A stretch of 64,000 nucleotides of DNA from Phascolarctobacterium succinatutens (GCA_963593735.1 CAVBBF010000001.1:9569-73568); one strand, 5' to 3'. Positions 14,271 to 64,000 are shown, counted from the stretch's first letter. Notes: generated from the sequence alone by a model not told the origin. Numbers and translations: made by a program.

Positions 14271-14327
14271 AAAATTAATAATTAATAATGAATAATTAAT
14301 AATTGCGGGTGGGCTTTGCCCACACCC
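14271..14327 (+). repeat. A/T box plus GC hairpin, copy 1
   Basis: AAAATTAATAATTAATAATGAATAATTAATAATT is followed by GCGGGTGGGC ttt GCCCACACCC. Starts 2 nt after the stop of the 59 aa ORF. Confidence 0.9.
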
Positions 14328-14524: not shown

Positions 14525-14732
14525 CACCAAGCAGATAATTTGGCGAAACTGTGGCGTGAGGTTTTATCCCTGCTTGAACTGATAGCGCAAATTCTCTGCG
14601 CGGTTAGTGATTGCGAGAACATGTGCGGTTTTTGTCAATCGCCCCAAAGGTTTTCATTTCTATTTATGGGATTCCCACGCTTCGCTCTGAATGACGACGT
14701 GGTCGATTGACTTTGCCGCAACGCCGTTTGAG
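14525..14732 (+). repeat. M3 module, copy 1
   Basis: CACCAAGCAGATAATTTGGCGAAACTG..GCGCGGTTAGTGATTGCGAGAACATGTGCGGTTTTTGTCAATCGCCCCAAAGG..GATTCCCACGCTTCGCTCTGAATGACGACGTGGTCGATTGAC..GCCGCAACGCCGTTTG. Confidence 0.8.
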
Positions 14733-14916
14733 CAATGCAACCCTAGCGTACAAATGTACGTGAGTTGTCAACTCGTGGCTCTGACAAAGTTATTCGCTTA
14801 CAACTTTTGACAAGAGCGCAATAAATGAATAAAGAACAAGAAAACGCCCATCGAATGGCAATCAAATATACAAAAAGTGAGCGTGTCTAATCCCACTCTT
14901 TATTTATTACGAAAGC

Positions 14917-15031
14917 CGCGCCAAATAGATGAAGAACGAGAAAGAGCCACCCGAACCGCAACCCTAATTTACTGATAGTAAATGAGTTGTCGGGCGGGTG
15001 GCTCTGACAAAGTTATTCGTTATTTGGCACG
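14917..15031 (+). repeat. HP repeat, copy 3
   Basis: S1 CGCGCCAAATA/TATTTGGCACG, S2 AGAGCCACCC/GGGTGGCTCT, apex CAAC CCTA ATTTAC tgata GTAAAT GA GTTG. The 3' arm contains the stop and last 3 codons of the M28 peptidase gene. Partial copies lie at 14738-14794 and 14823-14862. Confidence 0.9.
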
Positions 15032-22564: not shown

Positions 22565-23535
22565 GTGAAATCACCTTTGAAAAAGTCTTGCGCGCCTCGC
22601 GTGCGTACGGACTCATACACAACGATTTTTCTTCGGGACTCGGGCACGCGTATATGGTCGTGTCCCCCGACGACGAAATCGTCGACGAATTTTTCACACT
22701 CGTAGCGGCAAGCGTTTATTGTCAAAAAGGCAACGCCTGCCTTCAATGTTCCGAGTGCAGAAAGGTGCTTCACAACAACCACCCCGACATATATCACGTC
22801 TTCCCCACCAAAGACAAAATCAAGGTTGACGACATCGAGCAAATGCTCGACACCGTGTCCGTCAAACCGCTTTCGGATCGCAAAATCTACTTCATACACC
22901 GCGCGGATCAAATGAACGCGCAGGCGCAAAACAAACTTCTCAAAACTCTCGAAGAACCGCCCAAAGACGTTACTATTTTTCTTGGCGTAGCAAACGAAGC
23001 GAGCGTGCTCGACACCATAAAATCGCGTGCGAGAGGGATTGCTATGGACGTGTTCGACGAGGATGTCGTGTACAATGCGCTTATCTCGCTCGGCATAGAC
23101 GAAGGCACTTGCGCCATAGCGGCGGCGTGCAGCGAAGGTCAACTCGGCAAAGCGCGCAAGATTGCTCTTTCGCCCAAGTACGCAGACCTTTATAAGTGCG
23201 CGATTTACGTCCTCACCAACCTCGCGCGCAGTTCGGATGTCGTAAGAGTGGACGGAATCGTGACGAGCGAGTCGGATCTTAGCGGACTTTTGGACGTTTT
23301 GAGCATCATCCTTCGCGATATGCTCGTATGCAAACAAAATCAAAATCTGATGTTGTCCAAACACTTATCATCGGACATAATAAATTTGAGCGGGCGTTAC
23401 TCGGAGCGCGCCCTTGCGGAAATCCTTTTCAAGATAAACGTCGCAAGACGCAAACTCTCTCTCAACGTCAACGTCACGGCAACCGTAGACGACCTGCTCT
23501 TTTCAATGTTGGAGGCAAAACATAAATGGCAATAA
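22561..23535 (+). CDS. holB: DNA polymerase III subunit delta'
   Basis: Follows tmk with a 4 nt overlap (GTG start). NKLLKTLEEPP motif. 324 aa. Confidence 0.85.
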   Translation: MSEITFEKVLRASRAYGLIHNDFSSGLGHAYMVVSPDDEIVDEFFTLVAASVYCQKGNACLQCSECRKVLHNNHPDIYHVFPTKDKIKVDDIEQMLDTVSVKPLSDRKIYFIHRADQMNAQAQNKLLKTLEEPPKDVTIFLGVANEASVLDTIKSRARGIAMDVFDEDVVYNALISLGIDEGTCAIAAACSEGQLGKARKIALSPKYADLYKCAIYVLTNLARSSDVVRVDGIVTSESDLSGLLDVLSIILRDMLVCKQNQNLMLSKHLSSDIINLSGRYSERALAEILFKINVARRKLSLNVNVTATVDDLLFSMLEAKHKWQ

Positions 23536-24383
23536 TCGTAGGCATAAAATTCAAAAACACCAACAAGGTGTACTATTTCGACCCCAAAGGCTTGACCTTT
23601 GAAGAAAACGACGGCGTTATCGTCGAAACGACGCGCGGACCCGAATACGCAACCTGCGCCATCGCAAACAAGGAAGTGGACGAGCGCGAAATCGTGCAAC
23701 CGCTCAAACCCGTCATCCGCAAAGCGACGGAAGAGGATTTGAACCGCCTTGAAAAAAACAATCAGGACAAGGAACACGCCCTCAAAGTCATTCGCGACAA
23801 AGTGGCGGAAATGAACTTGAGTATGAAACTCGTGGATGCCGAATACACTTTCGACCGCACCAAACTCATATTCTACTTCACAGCCGAAGGGAGAGTGGAC
23901 TTCAGAGAACTCGTGCGCGTGCTTGCGTCCATATTCAAAGTCCGTATCGAACTTCGCCAGATTTACGAGCGCGACGACACCAAAATGCGCGGCGCACTTG
24001 CACCCTGCGGTCGCCCCTGCTGCTGCACCACCCACCTTCCCGACTTTGAAAAAGTGTCCATAAAGATGGCAAAAGTGCAAGGATTGAGCCTCAATCCGCA
24101 AAAGATAAGCGGCGTGTGCGGAAGATTGATGTGCTGCCTTAAATACGAAAACGCGTATTACACCGAAACGTACAAACTTATGCCGAAAGTGGGAAGCAAG
24201 GTCAAAACGCCGGACGGCGAAGGCACGGTTGAATCAAACGATTTGATAAAGCAAACCGCCCGCGTAAAGGTTATGCTCAAAGACGGCAGTTTCGACGTGC
24301 GCACCTACGCCCTCGAAGATATGAAAATCGGCGAACGACAATCCACCGCCGAAATCGACTCGATGTCCGACAAAGAGGACTAA
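23526..24383 (+). CDS. ricT: PSP1 domain protein (RicT/YaaT-like)
   Basis: Conserved tmk-holB-yaaT order. Cys cluster CGRPCCC...CGRLMCCLKYE. 285 aa. Confidence 0.85.
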   Translation: MAIIVGIKFKNTNKVYYFDPKGLTFEENDGVIVETTRGPEYATCAIANKEVDEREIVQPLKPVIRKATEEDLNRLEKNNQDKEHALKVIRDKVAEMNLSMKLVDAEYTFDRTKLIFYFTAEGRVDFRELVRVLASIFKVRIELRQIYERDDTKMRGALAPCGRPCCCTTHLPDFEKVSIKMAKVQGLSLNPQKISGVCGRLMCCLKYENAYYTETYKLMPKVGSKVKTPDGEGTVESNDLIKQTARVKVMLKDGSFDVRTYALEDMKIGERQSTAEIDSMSDKED

Positions 24384-24399
24384 TTAAAAACCGCTAATC

Positions 24400-24447
24400 A
24401 AAAAGAGGCATTTGACCGACAATCCGTCGCACAAATGCCTCTTTTTT
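24400..24447. terminator. Bidirectional terminator between ricT and the 197 aa gene
   Basis: AAGAGGCATTTG (17 nt) CAAATGCCTCTT flanked by A5 and T6 tracts. Genes converge on both sides. Confidence 0.8.
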
Positions 24448-24460
24448 AATACGCAAACAC

Positions 24461-27541: not shown

Positions 27542-27881
27542 CACAAAAATATAACAAGTGCATATCCGCTTGATTTTGCCACAAACCTTATCCAAAGAAC
27601 AATCGGATAACGCGAATAATGCACCTGTTACCATAAGGTAAGGCACCCGATTGTTCTCTATTCAGTTTGTGGCGACAATAGAATATCACCAATCGGGCAA
27701 ATAGTCAATATATCCAAAATCTCAAACCATTACCGAAAACAAAAAGAATTCGCTTTATAAACAGTTTTACGTTTAGAAAGCACATTTATCTTGATTTCTG
27801 CATAACAAGCGGTTAAAAACTTCGATATTTAGATGAAGAACAAGGAAAAGCCCCTTGTTCGGCAACCCTAATGTGTAAGTT

Positions 27882-28008
27882 GTAAAAACTCGCCATTGAG
27901 ATGAAGAACAAGAAAGAGCCTCACAATCAGGCAGGAGCGTACATTGACGTACGTGACTGTTTGATTGAGAGGCTCTGCCGCCGTTATTCGCTCAATGGCG
28001 AGTTTTAC
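27882..28008 (+). repeat. HP repeat, copy 4
   Basis: S1 GTAAAAACTCGCCATTGAG/CTCAATGGCGAGTTTTAC, S2 AGAGCCTC/GAGGCTCT plus CAATCA/TGATTG, apex CAG GA GCGTAC attgac GTACGT GA CTG (symmetric GA/GA loop). The 3' arm covers the stop codon of the 43 aa ORF. A 5'-half copy lies at 27823-27881. Confidence 0.9.
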
Positions 28009-28136
28009 TTGCAGTTTTTGGTTTCTCTGCTCTTTTCACACCCACAATCTTTGGATTTCGTTGTTTTGCTCGTTTTCGGTTCGTCGCAATGGCATGCGCC
28101 GCTGCGTTTGGTTTGTTTGGTTTCGGATTTTGCCAT
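28005..28136 (-). CDS. Small Cys-rich hypothetical protein (43 aa)
   Basis: Not in the ORF track. AAGGAG RBS lies 7 nt upstream of ATG 28136. Translates MAKSETKQTKRSGACHCDEPKTSKTTKSKDCGCEKSRETKNCK. The stop codon lies inside the outer stem of hairpin repeat copy 4. Confidence 0.45.
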   Translation of the reverse strand: MAKSETKQTKRSGACHCDEPKTSKTTKSKDCGCEKSRETKNCK

Positions 28137-29947: not shown

Positions 29948-31177
29948 ATGCTTGAACTTCTAATGCCGGCGGGCAATCTCAAAAAACTTAAAACCGCTTT
30001 CCACTTCGGCGCAGACGCCGTATATATAGGCGGAAAGGCTTTTTCGTTGCGCGCTTTTGCAGACAATTTTTCAAACGAGGAAATTGTCGATGGCGTGAAT
30101 TTTGCGCATGCGCTCGGCAAAAAAGTGTACGTCACGGCAAACATATTCGCAAGAAACGCCGACCTCGAATCTCTCAAAGAATACTTCGTTTTTTTGCAAT
30201 CCGCAAACGTTGACGCGGTGCTTATAAGCGACGTGGGTCTTGTCGCGCTGTGCAAAGAGGTTGCGCCGTCGCTGACCATTCATTTGTCCACGCAGGCAAA
30301 CACCACCAACCTGCTCGCCGTCAAATTTTGGCAAAGTATGGGCGTAAAACGAGTGGTGCTTGCACGAGAACTCGGACTTGAAGAAATAAAGCAAATTCAC
30401 GAGGCGGTGCCGGATATGGAACTCGAAGCGTTTGTGCACGGCGCAATGTGCATGTCCTACAGCGGTCGCTGTCTGTTGTCCACATACTTTTCGGGGCGCA
30501 GCGCAAACAGAGGCGCGTGCATTCAGCCGTGCAGATGGGGTTATCGCATAACCGAAACCGAACGCCACGCTTCGAAGCCGCTCGATATAGAGCAAGACGA
30601 AAGAGGAACGTATTTTATGAACAGCCGCGACTTGCGACTGCTCGAACACATCCCCTCTCTTGCCGAATGCGGAATCGTGTCGCTGAAAGTGGAAGGCAGA
30701 ATGAAAAGCGAGTTTTACGTCGCTACCGTCGCAAACGCATATCGCCACGCAATCGACGAGTATTTGCAAACGAGCAAAATCGAAAATGCGGCAAAATACA
30801 ACGCCGACCTCGAAACCGTCGCGCACCGCACCTACACCGACGCATACTTCGAGGGCGACAACCTCGACACCGTATGTCTTGACGAGGGACAATCCCCCGA
30901 AAAGTATATCTTCACCGCCGTCGTGCAGACTGCCGAAAACGGCATAGTCACGGTTGAAATGCGCAATCGCTTCAAATCTGGCGAAACCCTTTTCGTATTA
31001 TCCCCCGACCAAAACGACGGCAAATCGTTTGCTCTTGGCGCAATCACGCACGCAAAAGATAACACCCTCACCGACGACGCAAAACTCGTCCAACACTCTT
31101 ACTCGTTTGCCTGTCCGTATAACTTGAAATCGGGCGATATACTGTTGAAAGAAAATCGAGGATTAATTAATAATTAA
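29948..31177 (+). CDS. Peptidase U32 family protein
   Basis: U32 signature EAFVHGAMCMSYSGRCLLS. 409 aa. The last four codons and the stop (LINN*) are encoded by the A/T box repeat. Confidence 0.85.
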   Translation: MLELLMPAGNLKKLKTAFHFGADAVYIGGKAFSLRAFADNFSNEEIVDGVNFAHALGKKVYVTANIFARNADLESLKEYFVFLQSANVDAVLISDVGLVALCKEVAPSLTIHLSTQANTTNLLAVKFWQSMGVKRVVLARELGLEEIKQIHEAVPDMELEAFVHGAMCMSYSGRCLLSTYFSGRSANRGACIQPCRWGYRITETERHASKPLDIEQDERGTYFMNSRDLRLLEHIPSLAECGIVSLKVEGRMKSEFYVATVANAYRHAIDEYLQTSKIENAAKYNADLETVAHRTYTDAYFEGDNLDTVCLDEGQSPEKYIFTAVVQTAENGIVTVEMRNRFKSGETLFVLSPDQNDGKSFALGAITHAKDNTLTDDAKLVQHSYSFACPYNLKSGDILLKENRGLINN

Positions 31178-31217
31178 TAATGAATAATTAATAATTGGGG
31201 GCGGGACACCCGCACCC
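31162..31217 (+). repeat. A/T box plus GC hairpin, copy 2
   Basis: ATTAATTAATAATTAATAATGAATAATTAATAATT is followed by GGGGCGGG aca CCCGCACCC. The box encodes the last codons and stop of the U32 peptidase gene. Confidence 0.9.
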
Positions 31218-31389
31218 GAAACGAAAACTTGTTCGAAGGCTACTTATTAACGGAATGTACTACTTCGAAGACGAGATAAAATCCTCCGTCCGCGATTATA
31301 TCGCGGACTTTTTTAACGCTCACTCGTTCGAAGCGTTCTTATAAACAGTATCTGCCCATTCGAAGACGGAACACGAGCCGCAAGGCGGC

Positions 31390-31625
31390 ATTGCTCAAAC
31401 GGCGTTGCGGCAATGTCAATCGCCCACGCCGTCATTCAGAGCGTAGCGTGGGAATCCCCTAAACAGAAATGAAAACTTTTGGGGCGATTGACAAAAACCG
31501 AACTTGTTCTCGCAATCACTAACCGCGCAAGCCCTCTTTGCTCTCCCGAATAAAACGGACAAGAACTCAAACCGCAATTCCGTGCGAGTGCTTGCTTGGT
31601 GAGGGCGTGCTACGCACGCAAGCGG
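31390..31625 (-). repeat. M3 module, copy 2 (reverse orientation, inserted inside an LE)
   Basis: Reverse complement of the same module. It interrupts an LE right after GAGCCGCAAGGCGGC, and the LE sequence restarts at about 31629. Confidence 0.8.
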
Positions 31626-31680
31626 TTAAACGAACACTTATTCGAAGCGTTCTTATTAACGGAATGTGCCTGTTCGAAGA

Positions 31681-31949
31681 CGTAACTCGAGCCGCAGGGC
31701 GGCGAGCCTATGAGCGCCGAGCTGGACGATTTGTACGAGAATGCGTGGCATTCCGTTGCGAAGCCGCCACGCAGGCGAAGTGGCATAATAAGTGAAATGC
31801 CCCTATCTATGCGAGTGCCGTCTGTCTCCCCCGCGAACGACGACTACTTGTGTAGAGAAATGCCCCTAACTGAGTGGTGGGAGAAATACCCGAGAGGGAA
31901 AGAGGGGGCGCATCTTTTTAGAGTACACGCCGCTCGCTCTTGTAGAGCA
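31681..31949 (+). repeat. Long-element (LE) core, copy 1
   Basis: ..GAGCCGCAGGGCGGCGAGCCTATGAGCGCCGAGCTGGACGA..GTGGCATAATAAGTGAAATGCCCCTATCTATGCGAGTGCCG..CTTGTAGAG. Same subfamily as the 54792 copy in its 5' half. Confidence 0.85.
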
Positions 31950-32018
31950 AGAATAAAAAGACCTCGATAAATCGATGCATAACGCGAAAGCACCCCTTGA
32001 ATGACAACCCTAATTATT

Positions 32019-32144
32019 AAAACCGCGATATTGAGATGAAGAGCAAGGAAACGCCCTTTTGCGAACCCGCCTAGCGTACTAAATCGTACGTGACGGGTGA
32101 ACAAAAGGGCGTTGACACAGTTATTCGCTCAATAGCGCGGTTTT
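32019..32144 (+). repeat. HP repeat, copy 5
   Basis: S1 AAAACCGCGATATTGAG/CTCAATAGCGCGGTTTT, S2 ACGCCCTTTTG/CAAAAGGGCGT, apex ACCCG CCTA GCGTAC taaatc GTACGT GA CGGGT. Its end overlaps the phosphoesterase stop codon. A 5'-half variant copy lies at 31965-32016. Confidence 0.9.
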
Positions 32145-33621
32145 AATGGTTGGCGGCGTAATCGTTAGCCCCGGTAAAATCCGCATAATAATTCTTCGCA
32201 ACGCAATCGAAAGTGCTGTCCGATTTGAGAGAGATGACGGTTGTGCCGCGCTGGGATTTTTCCTTGTAAATGCCGACGTAGGCGAGATAGTCGATGGACA
32301 TACCGTAGGTGAGACGGATGGATCGAGACGCACCGGTCGGCGTGTAGTTCACTGAGAAGTTGTTGTAGTGGTCGTGTCCGCAGAATATGCCTTGCATTCC
32401 GTGCGTAAGACCCGTTTCAAAGAGCATGTCGGTGCTGCTTCCGCAGAATACGCCGTAGGTGCGAACGCCGTTTTTCTTCTTGTCGGACTCGCCCATTGTG
32501 CCGTAGAGGAATTCGGTTGTGCCGTTATCGGACGTGAGAATCGTTCCGCGAGTCAATTCGTCTTCGGATTTGCCCGACTCGATGACGTTTGCCCACGCAA
32601 GACGATATTCTTCAAGCGGAATATGGAAGAACACAAGGTTGTTGACTTCCTTGCCTTTGTTTGCGGCTTTGAGTTTGTCCATTTCGGTTGCGTACCAGTC
32701 GATTTGGCATTGATGAATATTGTCGTACTTCCACGCCATTCCGAAATAGTCGCCGTCGGTGTAACTGTGGCTGTCGAGCGTAACGAGCGCTTGGTTGATG
32801 GGATTTTCGGAGTCGCTCGGATTCTTTACGACGATGACATCGTTGCCGAAGCCTCTCGAAGTTTTGCTTATCTCGTCCTTCTCGTCGCAGAAACCTGCTC
32901 TGAAAAGACAATATTTGAAACCTGCGTTTGCATAGTAGTCGCAGATTTTGTCGCGGCCGTACAGGCTGTACATCTCGGTGTCGTGGTTGCCGAACGCAAA
33001 CGTCCAGTACACGCCGAGATTTTCCATCATATTCGCAAAGATTTTGGTTGCGTTAAGGTTGTTGAACGTACCTGCTTGGAAGGGAACGGGATACGCAATA
33101 TCGCCCGTTACGACAACGAGGTCGGGTTGAGATTGACGAATCATCGTTGCAACCGCACTCATAGCCCAGTTGTCTTTCGTGCCCGAAAACGCGCCGCCGC
33201 CGATATGTACGTCGGTGAATTGCAACACTTTGAAATCCCTGTCCTCTTCTTTTTCAAACGTCCAGTGTCCGAGTTCGTTGTCGAAAGTCGGAACAAGTTG
33301 CGTATGCTCGGTGTATTCCACCTTTTCAAAACTCGAAGCAAGCGAAAGGTGCGCATTTGTATTGACGGTCGAGGCAATGGCGCAACCGCTGAAAAAGATG
33401 ACGATTGCAAGCACCACGCACCCCGTGATAATCAAGGCTTTTGCGGTTTTTCTTTTCTTTTGTTCGGGTGTGAGTTGTTTTTTCTCTTTTTTGCCCTTCT
33501 TTGCCTTTTTGCCGTCGAAGTCGTTGAGTATACCCTCGTTTTCGACGTTTTCTTCAAGACCGTTTACGCCTTGTTGCGATTCCTCTTGCGGAATATCCGC
33601 ATTTTTGATTTCGTCGCTCAT
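32143..33621 (-). CDS. Membrane-anchored metallophosphoesterase
   Basis: Calcineurin-like blocks QFTDVHIG, VVTGDIAYP, FGNHD, FFHIP, CGHDH. N-terminal TM follows a Lys-rich segment. Confidence 0.8.
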   Translation of the reverse strand: MSDEIKNADIPQEESQQGVNGLEENVENEGILNDFDGKKAKKGKKEKKQLTPEQKKRKTAKALIITGCVVLAIVIFFSGCAIASTVNTNAHLSLASSFEKVEYTEHTQLVPTFDNELGHWTFEKEEDRDFKVLQFTDVHIGGGAFSGTKDNWAMSAVATMIRQSQPDLVVVTGDIAYPVPFQAGTFNNLNATKIFANMMENLGVYWTFAFGNHDTEMYSLYGRDKICDYYANAGFKYCLFRAGFCDEKDEISKTSRGFGNDVIVVKNPSDSENPINQALVTLDSHSYTDGDYFGMAWKYDNIHQCQIDWYATEMDKLKAANKGKEVNNLVFFHIPLEEYRLAWANVIESGKSEDELTRGTILTSDNGTTEFLYGTMGESDKKKNGVRTYGVFCGSSTDMLFETGLTHGMQGIFCGHDHYNNFSVNYTPTGASRSIRLTYGMSIDYLAYVGIYKEKSQRGTTVISLKSDSTFDCVAKNYYADFTGANDYAANH

Positions 33622-36771: not shown

Positions 36772-36846
36772 TATGCGCGCGTTATTATGTTATATTTAAT
36801 ATACATAATAGGATAAGGTTTTATTTGATAAATAAGTAAATTTTTG

Positions 36847-36878
36847 AATTAATAATTAATAATGAATAATTAATAATT
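36847..36878 (+). repeat. A/T box, copy 3 (no GC hairpin)
   Basis: AATTAATAATTAATAATGAATAATTAATAATT is followed by GCGCCGAATGCAAAAC rather than the hairpin. Confidence 0.85.
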
Positions 36879-36916
36879 GCGCCGAATGCAAAACACAGAA
36901 AAACAATTAAATAAAA

Positions 36917-37150: not shown

Positions 37151-37189
37151 GTCTGTGAATTAGCACATTCCGTTACAAAATACTAATAT

Positions 37190-37315
37190 AAAACCGCGAT
37201 ATTTGGATGAAGAATGCGAAAGGCACGGCTTGAATCAAAACCCAGTGTACATAGGCGTACACGATTTTGAGACAAGCCGTGCCTGACAAAATTATTCGCC
37301 AAATAGCGCGGTTTT
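37190..37315 (+). repeat. HP repeat, copy 6
   Basis: S1 AAAACCGCGATATTTGG/CCAAATAGCGCGGTTTT, S2 AGGCACGGCTTG/CAAGCCGTGCCT (12 bp perfect), apex CAAAA CCCA GTGTAC ataggc GTACAC GA TTTTG. Its end overlaps the SDR stop codon. Confidence 0.9.
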
Positions 37316-38036
37316 ACAGTCCGGCGGTGATGGACAAGATAGAGCCTACACAATACCCGCTCTCCGCCAAATAAAGTATCGCTTTGGCGATTTCGGTGGG
37401 GGTTGCGAGTCTGCCGAGAGGTATGCTGTCGCGGCAGAGTTCCTCTTTTTCGAGAGAGGTGTAGACGGACATCATATCGGTGTCGACTGCGCCGGGTGCG
37501 ACGGCGTTGACGAGAACGCCCATTGGAGCAACCTCTTTGGCGAGGGCTTTGGTGAAGCCGATGATGGCGGCTTTTGAGGCAGAATAGGCGACTTCCATAC
37601 TTGCTCCCTTCTCGCCCCAGACGGACGACAGATTGACGATCGAGCCTTGTCTGCGAAAAAGCATATCGGGGAGAACGGCTTTTGTGACGTTGAACGTGCC
37701 GTTGACGTTGATGTCGAATATGCGCTTGAAGTCGTCAAGCGACGTATCTATCAAAAGTCCGCTCTTTGCGATACCTGCGTTGTTGACGAGAATATCGATT
37801 TTGCCAAAACGTTTTTTTACGGTTTCGACGGCGTTTGCGACGCTGTCGGGATTTGTAACGTCGCACTCGATTGCGAGCACGCCGCCAAAACGAGAATCAA
37901 GCGCATTCTGCAAAGAAAGCGCTTTCTCCTTTGAGGAATTGTAGGTGAAAGCGACGTTGTAATTTCCCGCCGCCAAGCGTACGACCGCTTCGCCTATTCC
38001 CCGACTTCCACCCGTAATAAAAATGGTTTTGGTCAT
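37314..38036 (-). CDS. SDR family oxidoreductase (3-oxoacyl-ACP reductase FabG-like)
   Basis: TGGSRGIG cofactor motif, NNAG, catalytic YSASKAA. 240 aa. Confidence 0.85.
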   Translation of the reverse strand: MTKTIFITGGSRGIGEAVVRLAAGNYNVAFTYNSSKEKALSLQNALDSRFGGVLAIECDVTNPDSVANAVETVKKRFGKIDILVNNAGIAKSGLLIDTSLDDFKRIFDINVNGTFNVTKAVLPDMLFRRQGSIVNLSSVWGEKGASMEVAYSASKAAIIGFTKALAKEVAPMGVLVNAVAPGAVDTDMMSVYTSLEKEELCRDSIPLGRLATPTEIAKAILYLAESGYCVGSILSITAGL

Positions 38037-42469: not shown

Positions 42470-43078
42470 TTTTCTTCCGTACCTGCGGCATCGCTACCTT
42501 TCGCCACGCTTGATTCCTACGGTCACTTCGTTCCCTCTGAATGACATCGTGGGCGATTGACTTTGCCGCAACGCCGTTTGAATTCTCCTCTTGCGTGCGT
42601 AGCATGCACCCACCAAGCAGATAATTTGGCGAAACTGCGGTTTGAGTTCTTGCCCCTCTTTTTTTTGAGAGCAAAGAGGGCTTGCGCGGTTAGCGATTGC
42701 GAGAACAAGTGCGGTTTTTGACAATCGCCCCAAAAGTTCTCGTTTCTGTTTAGGGGATTCCCACGCTTGCGCTCTGAATGACGATGTGGGCGATTGACAT
42801 CACCGCAACGCCGTTTGGGTTCTCCGCTTGCGTGCAAAGCACGCTTTACCAAGCAAGCACTCGCGCGGAATTGCGGATGGATTCTTTGTCCGTCTTATTC
42901 GGGAGAGCAAAGAGGGCTTGCGCGGTTAGTAGCGCAATAAATCGAGCAAGGCTCTCGGCGAGACGCACACTTGCGTGTTGCCGTTGCCTTAGCGACGATT
43001 TTTGCGCAATCTCACTTGCGCACAGCGCAAATTTCACTGTCCGTAAGGACAATTTCACGCACGCTTGCGTGCATTTCA
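42470..43078 (+). repeat. M3 modules, tandem/mosaic block (about 2.5 units, period ~238 nt)
   Basis: CTCTGAATGAC..GTGGGCGATTGAC..GCCGCAACGCCGTTTG..CTTGCGTGC..AGCA.GC..ACCAAGCA recurs at 42533 and 42771. GAGAGCAAAGAGGGCTTGCGCGGTTAG recurs at 42668 and 42903. Confidence 0.8.
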
Positions 43079-43094
43079 CCGCATCGCAGATGCG

Positions 43095-47130: not shown

Positions 47131-47289
47131 CGGATATTTACTTTTCGCCTATTCAAGGTGTACTTATAAAACGGAATGTGCCTATTCGCAGACGAGATGA
47201 AAACCGCCGTCCGCTCTCCTTGCAAAGCGGACTTCTAACGAACACTCATTCGAAGCGTACTTATACACGGAATGTGCTTATTCGTAGAT

Positions 47290-47554
47290 GGAACACGAGC
47301 CGCAGCGGCGGCGAGCCTATGAGCGCCGAACTTGACGAACAGTACAAGCGACTACGCCGTCCGTTGGCCACTGCCTGGCGCACAAAGCGCAGTGGCATAA
47401 TGAGAGAAATGCCCCCTATCTATGTGAGTGCCGACTTCCCCTCTTGCGAACGATGCGTGTTTTTGTAGAGAAATGACGTTAGTTTGAGCAATAGGGGAAA
47501 GCCCGAAGGGAAGGGGTGATGTGTTATTTTAAGAGTACACGCCGTGCACTCTTT
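47290..47554 (+). repeat. LE core, copy 3
   Basis: GGAACACGAGCCGCAGCGGCGGCGAGCCTATGAGCGCCGAACTTGACGAACAGTACAAGCGACTACGCC..GCCACTGCCTGGCGCACAAAGCGCAGTGGCATAATGAGAGAAATGCC..CAATAGGGGAAAGCCCGAAGGGAAGGGGTGATGTG. Confidence 0.85.
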
Positions 47555-47658
47555 TATTAACTAAACACTTTTATTGTGCCAAACAGATGAAGAACAAGGA
47601 AACACCCTTTTGCAAATCCGCCCAGCGTACTTATGCGTACGCTTTTTTATTACCAATA

Positions 47659-47787
47659 CTTTTATGGCATAAGTGAGATGAATGACGCGAAAAAACCCTG
47701 ATTTTGACAACCCTAATTTACTAATCGTAAATGAGTTGGCAAAATCAGGGCGTTGACAAAGTCAGTCGCTCACTTATGCCATAAAAG
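47659..47787 (+). repeat. HP repeat, copy 7 (orphan, not next to a stop codon)
   Basis: S1 is 19 bp perfect, CTTTTATGGCATAAGTGAG/CTCACTTATGCCATAAAAG. GAATGAC:GTCAGTC replaces GAAGAAC:GTTATTC. S2 CCCTGATTTT/AAAATCAGGG. The apex is as in copy 1. A truncated copy lies at 47577-47641. Confidence 0.9.
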
Positions 47788-48210
47788 CGCAAACGACCTC
47801 GGGTGAACACCCAAAGCCGCTTGCTATGATAAGGGGGAAAATTATGAGCTGTTTGATTTGTAATCCGTTTGTCTCTTGATTACATTGACATATTAGCACC
47901 GAAAAAATAGTTCGTCAAGGGGTTTTTGTAAATTTTTTTTATTTTTTTTGATTTTTTTACAAAATTTCTAACAAAAGTGCAAAATAAAATTCATTGCGAA
48001 TGCAAGATTTGTAGATTTTTTTGCAAAACATGCACCAAAAAAGCGCAAAAATAAGCCGTGCCGATTGACATTAGAATGCCGATTTTAGTAAAATCGGCAT
48101 TCTAAACGGGCGTTTTGTTTTTGACACGGCAATTACTTTAAAAATCATTAATTTTTCGTGATTCTAACACTGTTAAACACAAAATAAAAGGTTTTTTCGA
48201 ATTTTTGCCG

Positions 48211-54585: not shown

Positions 54586-54641
54586 AAATTAATAATGAAT
54601 AATTAATAATTAATAATTGCGGGTGGGCTTTGCCCACACCC
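54586..54641 (+). repeat. A/T box plus GC hairpin, copy 4
   Basis: AAATTAATAATGAATAATTAATAATTAATAATT (internally permuted) is followed by GCGGGTGGGC ttt GCCCACACCC. Lies ~20 nt upstream of the -35 of the rpmH promoter on the opposite strand. Confidence 0.9.
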
Positions 54642-54791
54642 AAACGAACACTTATTCGTAGCCTACTTATTAACGGTATGTGCTAATTCGCAGACGAGAT
54701 GAAAACCGCCGTCCGCGAACTTGCAGAGTGGACTTTCTAACGAACACTTATTCGAAGTTTACTTATAAACGGTATGTGTTTATTCGAAGAC

Positions 54792-55054
54792 GGAACACGA
54801 GCCGCAAGGCGGCGAGCCTATGAGCGCCGAGCTGGACGATTTGTACGAGAATGCGTGGCATTCCGTTGCGAAGCCGCCACGCAGGCGAAGTGGCATAATG
54901 AGTGAAATGCGCCTATCTATGCGAGTGCCGATTTCCCCTCTTGCGAACGATGTGCAATCTTGTAGAGAATTGACGTTTGTTTGAGCAATAGGGGAAAGCC
55001 CGAAGGGAAGGGGTGATGTGTGATTTAAAGTACACGCCGTACACTCTTGTAGAG
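54792..55054 (+). repeat. LE core, copy 4
   Basis: GGAACACGAGCCGCAAGGCGGCGAGCCTATGAGCGCCGAGCTGGACGATTTGTACGAG..GTGGCATAATGAGTGAAATGCGCCTATCTATGCGAGTGCCG..CAATAGGGGAAAGCCCGAAGGGAAGGGGTGATGTG..CTTGTAGAG. Confidence 0.85.
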
Positions 55055-55217
55055 AAAGAAAAACGCCCTTCTTTTTTCGAGAGGGGTGTTAACACAGTTA
55101 TTCGCTCAATAGCGACATTACATATGTGAGTGCGCCAAACAGATGTATAACAAGAAAGACACGACTTGAATCAAAACCCAGTGTACATAGTCGTACACGA
55201 TTACACAAAAACAATGT

Positions 55218-55336
55218 AAGCCGATATTGAGATGAAGAACAAGGAAACGCCCTCTTGCGAACCCGCCCAGCGTACTATTCGTACGTGACGGGTGAACAAA
55301 AGGGCGTTGACGATGTTATTCGCTCAATAGCGGCTT
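55218..55336 (+). repeat. HP repeat, copy 8
   Basis: S1 AAGCCGATATTGAG/CTCAATAGCGGCTT, S2 ACGCCCTCTTG/CAAAAGGGCGT (one C:A), apex ACCCG CCCA GCGTAC tattc GTACGT GA CGGGT. Its end overlaps the argS stop codon. Partial copies lie at 55051-55115 and 55128-55202. Confidence 0.9.
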
Positions 55337-57017
55337 ACATTTCTTCGGGAGCGGAAATGCCGAGCAACCCCAACCCACACTTTATCACGTTGCCCACCGC
55401 TTTGGTGAGAGCAAGACGTGCGTTGCGAGTGGGTGCGTCATCGACGAGTATGCGATGATCGATGTAGAAACGATTGAACTTTTCGGCAAGATCGACGATG
55501 TGACGAGTGACGTAGCAGGGCTCGCGCAGTTTGGCGGCTTGGCGCACGGAATCGCCGAAAGCAATGACGGATTTTATGACGTCGTAACCCTCGTCGGAAG
55601 TTATTGCGGACAAGTCGACGTTTGCATAATCGATGTCGCCGCCCTTGCGAAGCGCGCTTGCGCAACGAGCATAGGTATATTGAACGTAAGGTGCGGTTTC
55701 GCCGTCGAAATTAAGCACCTTGTCGTATGAAAACACGATGTCTTTTATACGGTTGTTCCAAAGGGACGAGAACACCACCGCGCCTACGCCGACGCTCTCT
55801 GCGATTTCGTCTTTGTTTGGTGTGTTCGGATTCTTTTCCTCGATGATTTTTCTTGCTTTTTCAACCGCCTTGTCCAGCACTTCTTGAAGCCAAATTACGC
55901 GCCCCGAACGCGTTGACATAGAGCCGTCTTCCATAGAAACCATGCCGTATGCGACGTGCTCCATATCGTCTGCACCTGCAAAATCCATAAGTTTAAGCAC
56001 CTGAAACAGTTGCTTAAAGTGCAGATTCTGCTGATATGCGACAACGTAAAGGCATTTGTAGAAGTCGTACGTTTTCTTGCGATAATACGCCGCGGCGATG
56101 TCGCGCGTTGCATACAAAGTCGCGCCGTCCGCCTTGACCAAAAGGCACGGCGGCATATCGTATTCGTCGAGGTTTACAACCTGTGCGCCGTCGCTTTCGA
56201 CAAGCAAGTTTTTCTCTCTCAATATGTCGAGGCACGCCTCCATTTTGTCGTTGTAGAAACTCTCGCCGGCATAACTGTCGAACTTGATTTTCAAGCGATC
56301 GTAAATCTTTCCGACGGCGGTCATCGTAACCTTTTTGAATACGTCGAAATACTTTGTCGCTTCCTCGTCGCCGTCCTCGATACGCTTGAACCAAGCGCGA
56401 GCCTCGTCGTCCATTTCGGGATGTTCTTCCGCCTCTTTGTGATAGCGCACGTAAAGTTTGTTGAGGAAGTATTCGTCGTTTTCCGCCACTTCCTCGAGAG
56501 AAGACCATTTGCGAGTTGCGACGATGAGTTTTCCGAATTGCGTACCCCAGTCGCCGAGATGGTTTATGCCGACGACATTGTAGCCGAGATGTTCAAAAAT
56601 GCGATAAAGTGCGCCGCCGATGACAGTCGTACCGAGATGTCCGATGTGAAAAGGCTTTGCGATGTTGACCGAACTATAATCGATGCAAATGGTTTTGCCT
56701 GCGCCCTCGTCGCTCGCGCCGACGTTTTCGTCCGTCGCGCTTTCGAGAGCCTTTTTCGCAAGCGTATTTCTGTCAAAGAAAATGTTGAGATAGCCGCCCA
56801 CAACCTCGACTTTTTCCACGAAATCGAGTGCCTGAACATAAGGCAAAAGTTTGTTTGCGATAACGGGCGGCGCAAGGCGCATTGTGCGTGCAAATTTGAA
56901 GCACGGCAAACAAATATCGCCCATTTTCGCTTCTTTCGGCGTTTCGAGAGCCGATTCGACGTCTTGCACCGAAAGCCCTTCGACGGCAAGCGCATTTGTT
57001 AATTCTTTTTCAAACAT
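55335..57017 (-). CDS. argS: Arginine--tRNA ligase
   Basis: 560 aa. SVNIAKPFHIGHLGTT (HIGH region). C-terminal anticodon-binding DALR-like region ending ISAPEEM. Confidence 0.95.
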   Translation of the reverse strand: MFEKELTNALAVEGLSVQDVESALETPKEAKMGDICLPCFKFARTMRLAPPVIANKLLPYVQALDFVEKVEVVGGYLNIFFDRNTLAKKALESATDENVGASDEGAGKTICIDYSSVNIAKPFHIGHLGTTVIGGALYRIFEHLGYNVVGINHLGDWGTQFGKLIVATRKWSSLEEVAENDEYFLNKLYVRYHKEAEEHPEMDDEARAWFKRIEDGDEEATKYFDVFKKVTMTAVGKIYDRLKIKFDSYAGESFYNDKMEACLDILREKNLLVESDGAQVVNLDEYDMPPCLLVKADGATLYATRDIAAAYYRKKTYDFYKCLYVVAYQQNLHFKQLFQVLKLMDFAGADDMEHVAYGMVSMEDGSMSTRSGRVIWLQEVLDKAVEKARKIIEEKNPNTPNKDEIAESVGVGAVVFSSLWNNRIKDIVFSYDKVLNFDGETAPYVQYTYARCASALRKGGDIDYANVDLSAITSDEGYDVIKSVIAFGDSVRQAAKLREPCYVTRHIVDLAEKFNRFYIDHRILVDDAPTRNARLALTKAVGNVIKCGLGLLGISAPEEM

Positions 57018-57352: not shown

Positions 57353-57420
57353 CGTCTACGAATTAGCACATACCGTTAATAAGTACGCTTCGAATGAGTG
57401 TCCGTTTTAAGCACACTTTT

Positions 57421-57545
57421 TTAAGTGCGATATTGAGATGCAGAGCAAGGAAGATACTTTCGCACGGCAACCCTAATTTACTATGCGTAAATGAGTTGAC
57501 GGGCGAAGGTGTCTGACGAAGTTATTCGCCGAATAGTGCGCTTAA
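57421..57545 (+). repeat. HP repeat, copy 9 (tandem with copy 10)
   Basis: S1 TTAAGTGCGATATTGAG/CCGAATAGTGCGCTTAA (imperfect), S2 AGATACTTTCGC/GCGAAGGTGTCT (two G:T), apex CAAC CCTA ATTTAC tatgc GTAAAT GA GTTG. Confidence 0.85.
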
Positions 57546-57548
57546 TTT

Positions 57549-57668
57549 GAGTGCGATATTTGGATGAAGAACAAGGAAGATGCGATTTTTGAACAACGAG
57601 CGTACTTAGGCGTACGTGACTTGTGAAAAAATCGTATCTGACGAAGTTATTCGCCAAATAGCACGCTC
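57549..57668 (+). repeat. HP repeat, copy 10
   Basis: S1 GTGCGATATTTGG/CCAAATAGCAC, S2 AGATGCGATTTTT/AAAAATCGTATCT (one G:T), apex ACAA C GA GCGTAC ttaggc GTACGT GA C TTGT. Ends at the ychF stop codon (57667-57669). Confidence 0.85.
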
Positions 57669-58749
57669 AAACGTTGATGCGGAACAAAACCACATCATTA
57701 TCCTGCATCACATAATCCTTCCCCTCGCTGCGTACTTTGCCGCGCTCTTTGGCGACGTTGAAGGAGCCGCATTCGAGAAGGGTTTGATAATCGACAATTT
57801 CGGCACGAATGAAACCGCGCTCGAAGTCGCTGTGAATTTTGCCGGCGGCTTGGGGGGCTTTGGTGCCTTTGACGATGGTCCAAGCACGCGTTTCTTTTTC
57901 ACCGGCGGTGAGATAACTGATGAGCCCCAAAAGTTTGTAAGACGCTTTGACGAGGCGGTCGAGTCCGCTCTCTTTAAGCCCGTAATCTTCCATAAACATT
58001 GCGCGGTCGTCGTCGGAAAGTTCGCTCAAATCTTCTTCGAGTTTGGCGCAAAGCACGATTGCTTCGGTGTTTTCCTCTTTGGCGATACTCTCGACTTCCT
58101 CGGTATACGCATTACCGTTTATGCCCGCTTCGTCGGTGTTTGCAACGTAGATGACGGGTTTGGACGTGAGCAAAAATTGCTCGTCAACAAAGCGTTTGAA
58201 GTCCTCGTCCATATCGAGATTGCGAAGGGGCTTGCCGCTTTCGAGCCACTTTTGCATAACAACGAGGCGGTCGATGTCCTCTTGATATTTTTTGTCCGCT
58301 TTCACCTTGACTTGCGCCGAAGCCATACGGCGTTCGAGGGTTTCCATATCGGCAAAAATAAGTTCGAAATTGATTGTTTCGATGTCTCTTTGCGGATTGA
58401 CCGAACCGTCGACGTGCGTTATGTTCGCGTCGTCGAAACAGCGAACAACGTGTACGATTGCGTCCACTTCCCTTATATGCGAAAGAAATTTGTTGCCGAG
58501 TCCTTCGCCTTTGCTTGCGCCCTTGACAAGACCCGCGATATCCACGAATTCAAGCGAAGTCGGGGTGATTTTTTTGCTGTCGTAAAGAGCGGCAAGTTTT
58601 TCGAGTCTTTCGTCGGGAACGGCAACAACACCTACGTTAGGCTCGATCGTGCAGAACGGATAATTCGCCGCTTGCGCGCCCGCCTTTGTGATTGCGTTGA
58701 AAAGCGTACTCTTGCCCACGTTTGGCAAACCTACGACACCGAGTTTCAT
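57667..58749 (-). CDS. ychF: Redox-regulated ribosome-binding ATPase YchF
   Basis: ATG at 58749 (MKLGVVGLPNVGKSTLFNA) with a GAGGT RBS. The upstream part of the ORF-track ORF is non-coding read-through. 360 aa. Confidence 0.95.
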   Translation of the reverse strand: MKLGVVGLPNVGKSTLFNAITKAGAQAANYPFCTIEPNVGVVAVPDERLEKLAALYDSKKITPTSLEFVDIAGLVKGASKGEGLGNKFLSHIREVDAIVHVVRCFDDANITHVDGSVNPQRDIETINFELIFADMETLERRMASAQVKVKADKKYQEDIDRLVVMQKWLESGKPLRNLDMDEDFKRFVDEQFLLTSKPVIYVANTDEAGINGNAYTEEVESIAKEENTEAIVLCAKLEEDLSELSDDDRAMFMEDYGLKESGLDRLVKASYKLLGLISYLTAGEKETRAWTIVKGTKAPQAAGKIHSDFERGFIRAEIVDYQTLLECGSFNVAKERGKVRSEGKDYVMQDNDVVLFRINV

Positions 58750-61340: not shown

Positions 61341-61439
61341 TCTTCGAATATACACATATCGTTTACAAAACAGACTGTGTGAGATAAAGAACACGAAAAC
61401 GCCCCTTTGCGATTCGCTCGGCGTTTGACAAGCAGTGCT

Positions 61440-61542
61440 AAATCGATGCATAACGCGAAAGCACCCCTTGCATGACAACCCTAATTTACTAAATCGTAAA
61501 TGAGTTGACAGGCGGGTGTCTCTGCCGCAGTTATTCGCGATT
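61440..61542 (+). repeat. HP repeat, copy 11 (chimeric: variant 5' arm, standard 3' arm)
   Basis: The 5' arm AAATCGATGCATAACGCGAAAGCACCCC matches copy 2. The apex is CAAC CCTA ATTTAC taaatc GTAAAT GA GTTG. The 3' arm is ..CTGCCGCAGTTATTCGCGATT. S2 is only partly complementary. A truncated copy lies at 61366-61437. Confidence 0.75.
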
Positions 61543-61556
61543 CCTTATTGACTTCA

Positions 61557-61684
61557 TCAAACAGTCTGTGTGAGATAAAGAACACGAAAACGCCCCTTTG
61601 ATAGCAATCCTAACGTACTTAGGCGTACGTGAATTGATAGCAAAGGAGCGTTGACGCAGTTGTTTGCTCACACAGGCTGTTTGA
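61557..61684 (+). repeat. HP repeat, copy 12
   Basis: S1 TCAAACAGTCTGTGTGAG/CTCACACAGGCTGTTTGA (one T:G), S2 ACGCCCCTTTG/CAAAGGAGCGT (one C:A), apex CAAT CCTA ACGTAC ttaggc GTACGT GA ATTG. The 3' arm is the stop plus last 5 codons of the 61668-62453 lipoprotein gene. Confidence 0.9.
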
Positions 61685-62453
61685 TGGCAAGGTGGATGTT
61701 CATAAACTCAATCGACAAAGCCCCCATCGTATCGTTTTCGGTCAATGTGAAGACACCAAAGGGCGCAGTTTGAGGATTGTCCTTGACTTTGTAGCCAAGA
61801 TAAATGGCTCTAAAGTGCGTGTCGTCGGAAGCGGTCAAGTCGCGGAGGGCGTATTGCGTGTCGAGAGTGAGACGAAGGACGGTGTCCTGAGGTATGGCAT
61901 CGAGAAGATCGGCAGGAAGAGCCATGTTTTCACCGACATATTTAAGTGCCGCTTTGACTTTTTCGTTTTGAAGGTCGAGACCGTCGATGTTGAAGCCGAG
62001 ACTGTGTTTGATAAGTCCAAGCGCACCCTGCAAATCGCTGTCTTTGAGTTTTTGCGTGAAGCCGGGGAACATAGGTTCGACATAATAATCGACGCTTGTT
62101 TTTATGTCAAAACCCGAAAGCGCGGTCGAGAGGTCAACTCCAAAATAATTGAGCAGTCCTGTTATGTTTTTGAACAATCCCGCTTTGGTTTGGATTTGCA
62201 TATGCATGGTTCCGTCGGTTTTGAACTCGAAATAAGTGTTGTCGGTGTCGATTGCCGCTTTGACGATAAGTTCGAGGAGTTTTTTGTTCATCCCCATCAT
62301 ATTGAGGTTGTCGTAATCAACGTCGAAGCGAGTGTTTTGAGCAAAAACCGAATCGTCGGTTTTTTCGTTGCAGGCGCAGAGTGCGAACAGACAAGAGGAA
62401 AGCAAAACGAGCGCGATTGCTATCGTGAAAATTCTAATAACGGATTTTTTCAT
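61668..62453 (-). CDS. Hypothetical lipoprotein (261 aa)
   Basis: Lipobox FALCACNE. No family recognised. The last 5 codons plus the stop lie inside the outer stem of hairpin repeat copy 12. Confidence 0.7.
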   Translation of the reverse strand: MKKSVIRIFTIAIALVLLSSCLFALCACNEKTDDSVFAQNTRFDVDYDNLNMMGMNKKLLELIVKAAIDTDNTYFEFKTDGTMHMQIQTKAGLFKNITGLLNYFGVDLSTALSGFDIKTSVDYYVEPMFPGFTQKLKDSDLQGALGLIKHSLGFNIDGLDLQNEKVKAALKYVGENMALPADLLDAIPQDTVLRLTLDTQYALRDLTASDDTHFRAIYLGYKVKDNPQTAPFGVFTLTENDTMGALSIEFMNIHLAIKQPV

Positions 62454-63869: not shown

Positions 63870-63931
63870 AAAATTAAATTAATAATTAATAATGAATAAT
63901 TAATAATTGAGGGAGTGCTCTGCCCTCACCC
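63870..63931 (+). repeat. A/T box plus GC hairpin, copy 5
   Basis: AAAATTAAATTAATAATTAATAATGAATAATTAATAATT is followed by TGAGGG agtgctctg CCCTCA CCC, then CGAAACGAAAACTTATTCGAAG as in copy 2. The element runs off the window end. Confidence 0.9.
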
Positions 63932-64000
63932 GAAACGAAAACTTATTCGAAGACTACTCTTACACGAAATGTGCAACTTCGAAGACGAGATGAAACCGCC

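Follow-up and report, generated by a model that had tools for sequence, protein, structure and literature searches.

The window analyzed here, a stretch of 64,000 nucleotides of DNA from Phascolarctobacterium succinatutens with a G+C content of 48%, contains 12 full or near-full and approximately eight partial copies of an imperfect palindrome of ~126 nt, which were identified by an nhmmer profile built from ten of the window copies. Every significant match lies on the plus strand, i.e., the family occurs in a single orientation, and the right-hand neighbor of each array is a gene encoded on the minus strand. It was claimed in an earlier note on this DNA that the hairpin arms overlap the stop codons of these neighboring genes, and this was confirmed for nine of them: in nine of the ten window arrays the stop codon of the right-hand gene is located inside the facing arm, the chance of finding at least nine of ten arrays at a stop being P = 1.6e-10. 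The array-adjoining genes are named by Pfam as HypA, a fused ABC-FtsX protein, an M28 peptidase, a metallophosphoesterase, an SDR, ArgRS and YchF, and a lipoprotein gene (stop 61668–61670) has no Pfam match. ORFs inside the element are short and not conserved.

Copy 1 (5207–5334; nhmmer E = 9e-36) is full length and holds in its proximal arm the hypA stop at 5330–5332. Copy 2 (10083–10259) has the stop of the ABC-FtsX fusion gene (10257–10259) as its outermost triplet and is interrupted by a foreign hairpin insert of ~51 nt (10179–10229) which is missing in the orthologues of this copy at the related loci L038, L069 and L001. Copy 3 (14911–15038), again full length, encodes in its outer arm the residues ESRAK and the stop (15020–15022) of the M28 peptidase; the stop and the last codons had been placed correctly within this stem before, the number of codons being five and not three. 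Distal to copy 3, two partial older copies at 14733–14801 and 14816–14871 were recognized by nhmmer and by polarity analysis. The full copy 4 (27883–28010) holds the stop (28005–28007) of a conserved 43-aa Cys-rich ORF and is accompanied by a partial older copy of which only the distal half is retained (27817–27874). Copy 5 (32018–32146) is full length, its ends read TAAAACCGCG...CGCGGTTTTA, and its first triplet is the metallophosphoesterase stop (32143–32145); next to it the distal half of an older copy, termed Y (31960–32014), was recognized by comparison with L116. The first triplet of the full copy 6 (37189–37317) is the SDR stop (37314–37316).

Copy 7 (47660–47787), which had been regarded as an orphan, is full length, has a partial older copy distal to it (47570–47641) and is indeed not placed at a stop codon; its outer arm begins in the T tract of a classical terminator hairpin of 16 bp (47824–47789, minus strand). 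Copy 8 (55217–55341), a full copy, starts with the argS stop (55335–55337), its stem pairs the terminal Met codon as well, and two partial older copies (55080–55120 and 55126–55202) lie distal to it. An exact search with the ArgRS sequence of the window matched no record. The ychF array consists of two full units, copy 9 (57420–57547) as the second unit and copy 10 (57546–57671), the first triplet of which is the ychF stop TGA (57667–57669) paired with TCA of the far arm. Finally, the lipoprotein array (61377–61538 for its older units) comprises an internally deleted copy (61377–61411), copy 11 lacking the proximal outer arm (61432–61538), and the full copy 12 (61558–61685), which carries in its outer arm the last four to five codons (IKQPV) and the TGA stop of the lipoprotein. 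On the minus strand, 61555–61687 folds as one continuous hairpin (RNA −65.9 kcal/mol, z = −11.3; DNA z = −9.3). The far arm of copy 12, CATCAAACAGTCTGTGTGAG, matches the last 14 coding nucleotides plus TGA with one mismatch, and the statement that its 5′ arm is an inverted copy of coding sequence holds.

Read in the direction of the upstream gene, the proximal arm is composed in the order TRA, zero to three A, a GC-rich pentamer, CTATTNR and GCGAATAAC. Its outer part of ~17 nt begins with TRA(A)n, and in ~80% of the anchored copies this triplet is the in-frame stop codon of the gene. The arm offers stops in all three frames, namely the outermost TRA, TGA or TAG within ATTGAG/ATTTAG, and the TAA of GAATAAC. 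GCGAATAAC-UGCGUCA on one side and CUUUCUUGUUCUUCAUC on the other side form a conserved asymmetric internal loop; further parts are a GC-rich middle stem of variable sequence, a short apical stem-loop and the complementary far arm, and the ends of the whole element can be written as TRA(A)nSSGCG ... CGCSS(T)nTYA. Sequence conservation of the unpaired positions and of the asymmetric internal loop defines the orientation of the element. The outer arms pair over ~17–28 nt and, unlike typical TIRs, their sequences covary between copies, only variations on the theme of TRA(A)n, GC-rich pentamer and CTATTNR being seen.

For 101 non-redundant copies, 91.5% of the cells are paired compared to 67% after shuffling and 38–44% with slid partners, and 45 of the 48 base pairs have changed on both sides. 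This includes the stop codon. The far arm complements the stop in 82 of 111 copies (among the matches listed and in the window), as was supposed when the TAA itself was described as base-paired. As an example, stop and far arm of ychF read TGA/TCA in the window and TAA/TTA in the L034 orthologue, and in the M28 gene, where GAA replaces the usual TAA, the far arm holds the matching change. Pairing of the far arm runs on average 1.58 nt into the coding sequence compared to 0.41 nt in controls; it usually extends 1–4 nt past the stop (2 nt for hypA, 4 nt for argS) and in a few copies reaches 11–15 nt. The hairpin has been kept paired along its whole length, stop codon included. G-U and A-C mismatches are similarly frequent (108 vs 130 overall) and symmetric in every helix, and the antisense RNA folds slightly better than the gene-sense RNA. 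Selection on one RNA strand was therefore rejected, as the G-U excess expected from it is absent and the stems do not look as if they were kept in this way; both observations together suggest that the palindrome is kept at the DNA level, where it might be held by fold-back templated correction or by a hairpin-recognizing enzyme. Two further origins of the outer stem were rejected. It is not the gene's own terminator stem carrying the element in its loop, because the arms follow one theme, identical arms are found on unrelated genes, and native terminator stems begin 0–77 nt after the stops; local templating between the outer arms of tandem partners left no signal (identity 0.54 vs 0.51 for random pairs).

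The anchoring on stop codons extends beyond the window. A scan with one genome per species matched at least 115 loci in related gut Clostridia, almost all of them uncultured gut Clostridia-type bins labelled Christensenella sp., CAG:475, CAG:238, UMGS and similar; the scan pattern covered the conserved core only and was silent on the flanks, so that the anchoring was not imposed by the search. Among the matches listed there are 211 family matches in 783 kb, 135 of them full length. With gene calls made by ORF heuristics and not by a trained gene finder, an ORF of at least 100 codons ends within the proximal arm in 112 of 145 full copies (matches listed plus window), and in the mirror-image test on the distal arm of the same copies the distribution of ORF ends is flat. 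The enrichment at stops beyond chance, for which the earlier note had proposed to compare distances between element end and stop codon, thus holds at these related loci. Most of the 112 anchored copies, i.e., 90, have the ORF end at the outermost TRA, 18 at an internal TGA/TAG and four at the TAA of GCGAATAAC. The 33 non-anchored full copies of the same set are for the most part second or third array units (about 25), a few follow short or cut ORFs, and four seeming orphans, window copy 7 included, begin in the T tract of a classical terminator. Moreover, some truncated nhmmer matches are anchored copies with divergent outer arms (e.g., L031), and L118 contains one inverted, unanchored copy in an operon spacer. 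In relatives with an identity of 76% or less in the test gene no copies were found. Viral contigs gave no match to the family; in Rfam the sole match of the window at gathering score is Gut-1 (43004–43081), and an E-value search with one element gave nothing meaningful. A phage-borne element or a known RNA family was therefore rejected.

Position is nucleotide-sharp and orientation follows the gene. At L053 and L118, a copy after a plus-strand gene and the one after the minus-strand M28 gene are ~8 kb apart and have opposite orientations, by which an orientation set by replication direction, as for single-strand transposons, was rejected in the tested neighborhood. In the window there are 618 intergenic TRA triplets outside the elements and 42 stop codons; placement driven by the motif would put ~6% of the arrays on a stop, and the motif alone was consequently rejected as the determinant. 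Upstream of the stop no target consensus was found, only codon periodicity, and native terminators as insertion targets do not explain the anchoring rule. Stop codon usage (TAA/TGA/TAG) is 0.66/0.28/0.05 at element-bearing genes compared to 0.49/0.42/0.09 (p = 0.008), a moderate shift to TAA. Subfamilies of the arm keep their own triplet, such as TGAGGGCA, which occurs on at least four unrelated genes.

The proposal that the element donates the stop codon together with C-terminal residues applies to a part of the genes. Among the 112 ORFs of the matches listed and the window, 22 read into the arm and end at the internal TGA/TAG or TAA. By homology, the M28 tail ESRAK is outer-arm sequence with GAA at the place of the usual TAA, and in an outgroup lacking the family the tail is unrelated and the terminator is of the classical type. 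The lipoprotein family ends in ...I-[AG]-[IL]-K-[QT]-x(-x), with KTA as the end of distant homologues; the last two to three residues vary among relatives, and the last one or two between close relatives. From this pattern Lys-Gln corresponds to ancestral residues, and the distal arm (61558–61577) is thus an inverted copy of partly native coding sequence. In contrast to these two, ArgRS, YchF, SDR and HypA follow their Pfam profiles to the last residue (the HypA match reaches profile position 111 of 112) and keep their native C-termini, and a protein of 285 aa (23526–24383) has equal length in relatives with and without the element. The comparison of C-termini with orthologues, which had been suggested as a check, and with profiles revealed a changed tail in the M28 peptidase and the lipoprotein and unchanged ends in most genes: the native C-terminus is kept in the majority, and the arm encodes the tail in a minority.

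Anchored copies are kept at orthologous sites of proteins that are 65–99% identical, and the interiors of such orthologous copies can be unrelated. At the phosphoesterase gene, L116 has the complete copy Y on the stop; in the window another complete copy, copy 5, occupies the stop and is followed by what is left of Y, its distal half. Copy 5 arrived later and displaced Y. At the SDR gene of L016, the interior of the copy 6 orthologue was replaced. Copies at three other genes are near-identical to the acquired one, and their 13-nt filler and the start of their downstream partial copy arrived along with it. Recombination crossed over within the proximal arm and within the conserved apical segment. 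As judged from these comparisons, resident copies are replaced by ectopic gene conversion with crossovers in conserved segments. This process explains the partial copies, in which the distal end is retained and the proximal end is lost and which lie on the distal side of a full copy: the newest copy is found on the stop codon and the truncated older copies further away. Presence/absence polymorphism was found at the gene of the 285-aa protein: L053 and L118 carry the element on its stop, and the site is empty in the window, L116, L049 and L127. The copies of L053 and L118 differ in sequence yet occupy the stop of the same gene. This gene is the only polymorphic site in the sample that bears on de novo colonization, with flanks too diverged to define the junction.

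The same gene is informative on the function of the element. At the empty sites a classical terminator is located 15–30 nt after the stop, whereas at the filled sites the element begins on the stop and there is no other terminator; filled sites do without a separate classical terminator. Among the matches listed, a classical terminator follows nine of 84 arrays compared to 73 of 309 element-free gene ends (p = 0.0097), with a background of 32/700 within genes; the generic terminator scan is close to this background and was used for single, strong sites only. Ordinary terminators of these genomes begin 0–77 nt after the stop, have unique sequences and are not palindromic beyond their stem. The inner hairpin of the element has a mean stability of −31.9 kcal/mol and is followed in gene sense by the conserved tract UUCUUGUUCUU; the 8 nt next to the hairpin, UUCUUGUU, contain 5.0 U on this strand compared to 1.0 U in antisense. 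Conservation of a U.G wobble is confined to gene sense, the U-rich tract is broken by C and G, and most copies end in a further U run beyond the outer stem. As in intrinsic terminators, the gene-sense strand of the element has a stable GC-rich hairpin with a U-rich tract directly behind it. Furthermore, what is left of the L196 copy and of the second L031 unit is proximal arm, hairpin and T run, the former proximal arm serving as a spacer of ~30 nt before the hairpin. Copies thus decay to simple hairpin-plus-T-tract terminators.

The suggestion that the element is a selected 3′-UTR terminator is supported in silico by the filled sites lacking a classical terminator and by the gene-sense U-rich tract; the balance of G-U and A-C mismatches speaks against the part of it that would have the stems selected on one RNA strand. 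The gene-sense inner hairpin (about −32 kcal/mol) with its U-rich tract may act as intrinsic terminator or as 3′-end protector of the upstream gene, and such a role would explain the fixed orientation. The element reads as a mobile terminator anchored on the stop codon, a variant of the MITE/REP-like repeats.

With a probability of roughly 0.55, we regard the family as a clade-restricted, non-coding, MITE/REPIN-like palindromic repeat of ~126 nt that acts as a movable gene-end module with a terminator role, is kept up at the DNA level and colonizes gene ends in an end-directed manner. A naive gene end would be colonized by joining of the TRA(A) terminus of the element to the end of the upstream unit, which could be the stop codon or a terminator T tract, and the far end of the element would be copied from the near flank by fold-back copying. 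Nucleotide-sharp anchoring, the gene-following orientation, the two filled sites compared to four empty ones, and the exceptions in T tracts form a pattern that supports insertion targeted to gene 3′ ends or terminators, as considered in the earlier note. The analysis covered stretches of 8–20 kb around copies; near the copies, neither a transposase nor a reverse transcriptase or recombinase turned up, and no recurrent transposase-like family was seen among 610 nearby ORFs. There is also no excess of direct-repeat target-site duplications between CDS end and element start (3.21 vs 3.15 nt); the flanks of the element are inverted complements, and copies of the TAA type could still carry a 2-nt TA duplication. 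Among the explanations considered, end-directed integration with fold-back copying ranks first, followed by differential retention, an RNA-defined unit and a non-mobile regulatory structure.

Differential retention would dispense with targeting. Insertion would occur in both orientations at ordinary sites, either short A/T-rich ones or TRA; away from stops, copies would be harmful by polar termination or be quickly lost, as is usual for long palindromes, and purifying selection would hold those copies that serve as the only stop codon and terminator, so that survivors pile up at stops. The persistence of anchored copies at orthologous sites down to 65–69% protein identity, the fast decay of non-anchored array units and the inverted, unanchored copy of L118 fit this process, as do the stops in three frames of the arm, the inner ones of which are used by 22 of 112 ORFs (matches listed plus window). 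However, a share of ~6% at stops is all that insertion by motif provides to start from, and almost no unanchored full or partial copies exist away from arrays. Only two of ~115 copies lie 12–14 nt after a stop, although for native terminators a distance of 0–77 nt is harmless. Moreover, decay strips the interior and the far arm while the stop remains, which shows that the stop codon is not truly held hostage. We consider differential retention rather unlikely, with a chance of about one in five.

It is rather unlikely that the insertion point is read off by translation or by RNA ends instead of DNA sequence, either because an RNA-defined module moves or because a machinery sensing ribosomes or transcript ends carries out the integration. 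Such sensing would land the element on in-frame stops and terminator T tracts and not on the ~15-fold more common identical triplets. In a weaker form, the hairpin may be a terminator gated by the ribosome on the stop codon. The first variant would have the 3′-UTR RNA, from the stop codon as ribosomal A-site boundary to the terminated 3′ end, as the moving unit; it would join the 3′ end of another RNA, i.e., an mRNA cut at the stop or a terminated transcript, be copied to DNA and be recombined, with the gene side fixed by homology and the far side joined imprecisely. In-frame stops are set apart from the other 618 TRA triplets by translation alone, the element has a sharp near end and a fuzzy far end where filler and co-transferred flank are found, the exceptions begin exactly in terminator T tracts and thereby at RNA 3′ ends, the orientation follows the gene, and the unit ends with hairpin and U run. 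Yet this variant is improbable: several rare steps in series are required, no reverse transcriptase was found near the copies, and gene conversion between resident copies already accounts for the fuzzy far boundary and the flank. To our knowledge there is no bacterial precedent for a mobile 3′-UTR unit defined by RNA.

An equally improbable explanation does without mobility. Here, the element would be a cis-regulatory terminator, the ribosome on the stop codon would melt the outer stem, and termination or 3′-end protection would depend on translation; the similarity between copies would stem from gene conversion among vertically inherited sites. The stop is always found within the stem base with its pairing kept by compensating changes, most sites are ancient and orthologous, and gene conversion was demonstrated. 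In addition, a reporter study found repression by the terminating ribosome for a terminator located a few bp downstream of a gene (PMC4824070), a result in favor of such gating. A non-mobile structure is difficult to reconcile with the presence/absence polymorphism and the two unrelated copies on one stop, with identical outer arms on unrelated genes, or with a family of hundreds of copies including arrays and nested inserts. An excess of G-U over A-C is missing as well, and if the inner hairpin with its U tract terminates transcription, the far outer arm is seldom transcribed. That the hairpins are attC-like sites, i.e., folded single-strand substrates of a tyrosine recombinase with the upstream genes as cassettes, can be dismissed as highly improbable: the length of ~126 nt fits species-specific attC families such as VCR, and conservation of structure over sequence, conserved unpaired positions, fixed ORF orientation and abutment on the stop agree with it, but the genes are core housekeeping genes (argS, ychF, hypA) in ordinary operons with synteny across species, RYYYAAC/GTTRRRY boxes are absent at the ends, and arrays of truncated copies without intervening ORFs are not cassette-like.

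Small palindromic repeats at bacterial gene ends are common, their placement is usually loose and their host function is debated. The family described here follows a nucleotide-exact and orientation-specific rule tied to the reading frame in many species of an uncultured gut lineage, and the data contain a life cycle from arrival on a stop codon via replacement by gene conversion to decay into ordinary-looking terminators. If end-directed colonization by a movable gene-end module is true, a mobile element can supply and renew a sizeable share of the terminators of a lineage, and elements of this kind can alter the final few residues of proteins. It would also mean that some process finds in-frame stop codons, and the family would offer a concrete system to ask how. 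In practical terms, the annotation of gene ends and the assembly of metagenome bins of this clade will suffer from confusion by these repeats.

A full-text literature search gave no account of this family or of stop-codon-anchored repeats, and in a review of small mobile sequences stop codons appear only as content of elements. We know of no bacterial repeat family with such a frame-exact, single-orientation anchoring on stop codons. The element shares with MITEs a size of less than 300 bp, the non-coding and multi-copy nature, terminal inverted repeats and the presence/absence polymorphism at orthologous sites; a flanking target-site duplication, which is typical of MITEs, was not detected. 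Correia elements insert at TA with duplication, occur in both orientations and at varied distances to genes, contain an IHF site and can create promoters. The family here resembles them (CREE/NEMIS, ~100–155 bp) in being non-coding, in the terminal inverted repeats and in the hundreds of copies; it differs by the missing duplication, the one orientation, the start on the stop codon, and arms that covary rather than being conserved. The CREE/NEMIS of Neisseria are co-transcribed as long RNA hairpins and influence the expression of their neighbors (PMC2649163, PMC2229807).

The size and the palindrome of the element are similar to those of ERIC/IRU and YPAL, without sequence similarity and with no Rfam match on the side of the element. 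These repeats of enterobacteria and Yersinia are imperfect palindromes of ~127 bp which are transcribed from intergenic regions and affect the stability of the upstream mRNA in an orientation-dependent manner; as far as we know, no report describes a nucleotide-precise anchoring on stop codons or a single orientation in their case. REP, BIME and REPIN sequences, which are linked to RAYT transposases, are extragenic palindromes concentrated at gene 3′ ends and proposed as mRNA stabilizers or terminators, with units of 20–40 nt, a GTAG or CGTC tag and alternating orientations. The family here differs from REP/REPIN by the missing tag, the units in direct orientation and the stop codon in the stem; its unit measures ~126 nt, and there is no conserved tetranucleotide outside the stem. 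For REPIN doublets, one study describes hairpins of ~100 nt whose structure matters for mobility (PMC3733652).

The element is like attC in length, palindromic structure and position after an ORF, and unlike it in the absence of core sites and cassette context and in its location at syntenic housekeeping genes. Integron attC sites (VCR ~123–126 nt) are imperfect palindromes after an ORF, often overlap the stop and have a fixed orientation, a conserved fold and conserved unpaired bases in an otherwise variable sequence. The element has no R″/R′ core sites at its ends, the GAATAAC/GTTCTTC boxes being internal and off consensus, and no array of promoterless mobile cassettes with intI/attI is seen, as argS, ychF, hypA, the ABC transporter and others are syntenic across species. 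Mycobacterial MIRUs are intergenic repeats with one orientation relative to the operon, and their ends overlap flanking stop and start codons; in contrast to the hairpins described here, they are tandem direct repeats with translation-coupling small ORFs inside, and neither hairpins nor terminators. With intrinsic terminators the element shares the GC-rich hairpin and the U-rich tract, it replaces classical ones and its decayed copies resemble them, whereas ordinary terminators are not repeated palindromes of ~126 nt with a stop codon in the stem. The closest kinds are the palindromic repeats of the Correia, ERIC and REPIN type together with intrinsic terminators, and attC is alike in form only.

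The hairpin element, an imperfect palindromic repeat of ~126 nt whose proximal arm usually contains the stop codon of the upstream gene, follows that gene in its orientation, and the sole clear departure from this rule is an inverted copy in an operon spacer (L118 5662-5782; L-numbers denote loci from related gut Clostridia genomes, with locus-internal coordinates). This copy ends without A/T runs, the upstream stop codon lies 45 nt before it and the Shine-Dalgarno sequence of the downstream gene follows 1 nt after it. Among the genes followed directly by an element is a 43-aa Lys/Cys-rich ORF (…CHCDEPK…DCGCEK…NCK; window 28005-28136, minus strand), which is conserved in L049, L116 and L117. 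Elements are likewise present at other Cys/His-rich ORFs that end in …CCHH*, in L036 and L115. The window holds many long ORFs antisense to real genes, such as 5861-7615 (+) within 5684-8548 (-), so that genes of the source genome cannot be called reliably from the length of an ORF alone.

Copy 7 of the element (47660-47787, minus strand), which is not placed on a stop codon, is joined to a strong 16-bp terminator (47824-47789, minus strand) located ~100 nt downstream of a promoter-like site at 47918-47890 on the same strand. No convincing ORF was found between this site and the terminator, and the region 47789-47930 (-) may represent a small RNA gene.

Several repeat families are stacked in the intergenic regions of the window. 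A hairpin unit of ~51 nt (…GAAGTGNCGGAATAGCGATTGNTACGCTTGCGNCAATCGCGTC…) is inserted within hairpin elements at several loci, i.e., in copy 2 (window 10179-10229), in L116 (~11090-11150) and in L016, and resembles a mobile element in its own right, smaller than the one in which it is nested. A second repeat of the window, observed at 14272-14327, 31164-31219, 36846-36901, 54586-54641 and 63876-63931, consists of a GC-rich hairpin preceded by an AT-rich block, AAATTAATAATTAATAATGAATAATTAATAATTG. Its copy at 54586 sits 20 nt upstream of a perfect TTGACA-17-TATAAT promoter on the minus strand (54566-54538), and the repeat may act as an UP-element/promoter module with an insulating hairpin. Units of 73-95 nt from the families D3/D5/D8/D9 separate the hairpin arrays from this AT-rich block (31209-31390, 31618-31862, 47170-47312, 54632-54972, 63923-63995). 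The family D13/D15/D16 occurs at 14525-14757 and at 42535-42929, where it adjoins the sole Rfam match in the window, a Gut-1 RNA (43004-43081, minus strand; 55.3 bits).

Finally, some copies of the hairpin element have decayed. The element-free gene 23526-24383 has a 3' UTR (window 24384-24460; TAATTAAAAACCGCTAATCAAAAAGAGGCAT…ATGCCTCTTTTTT) that is similar to the outer arm and middle stem of one element subfamily and may itself be a decayed copy. The reduced copies in L196 (2280-2350), L031 (7160-7235) and L197 (2310-2420) retain only the proximal arm, the middle-stem hairpin and a T run, and in this form they look like classical terminators. In L197, a decayed distal arm overlaps the stop codon of a PPIase gene that runs convergently. 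The element may have left many of the seemingly ordinary terminators of this clade as its remnants.
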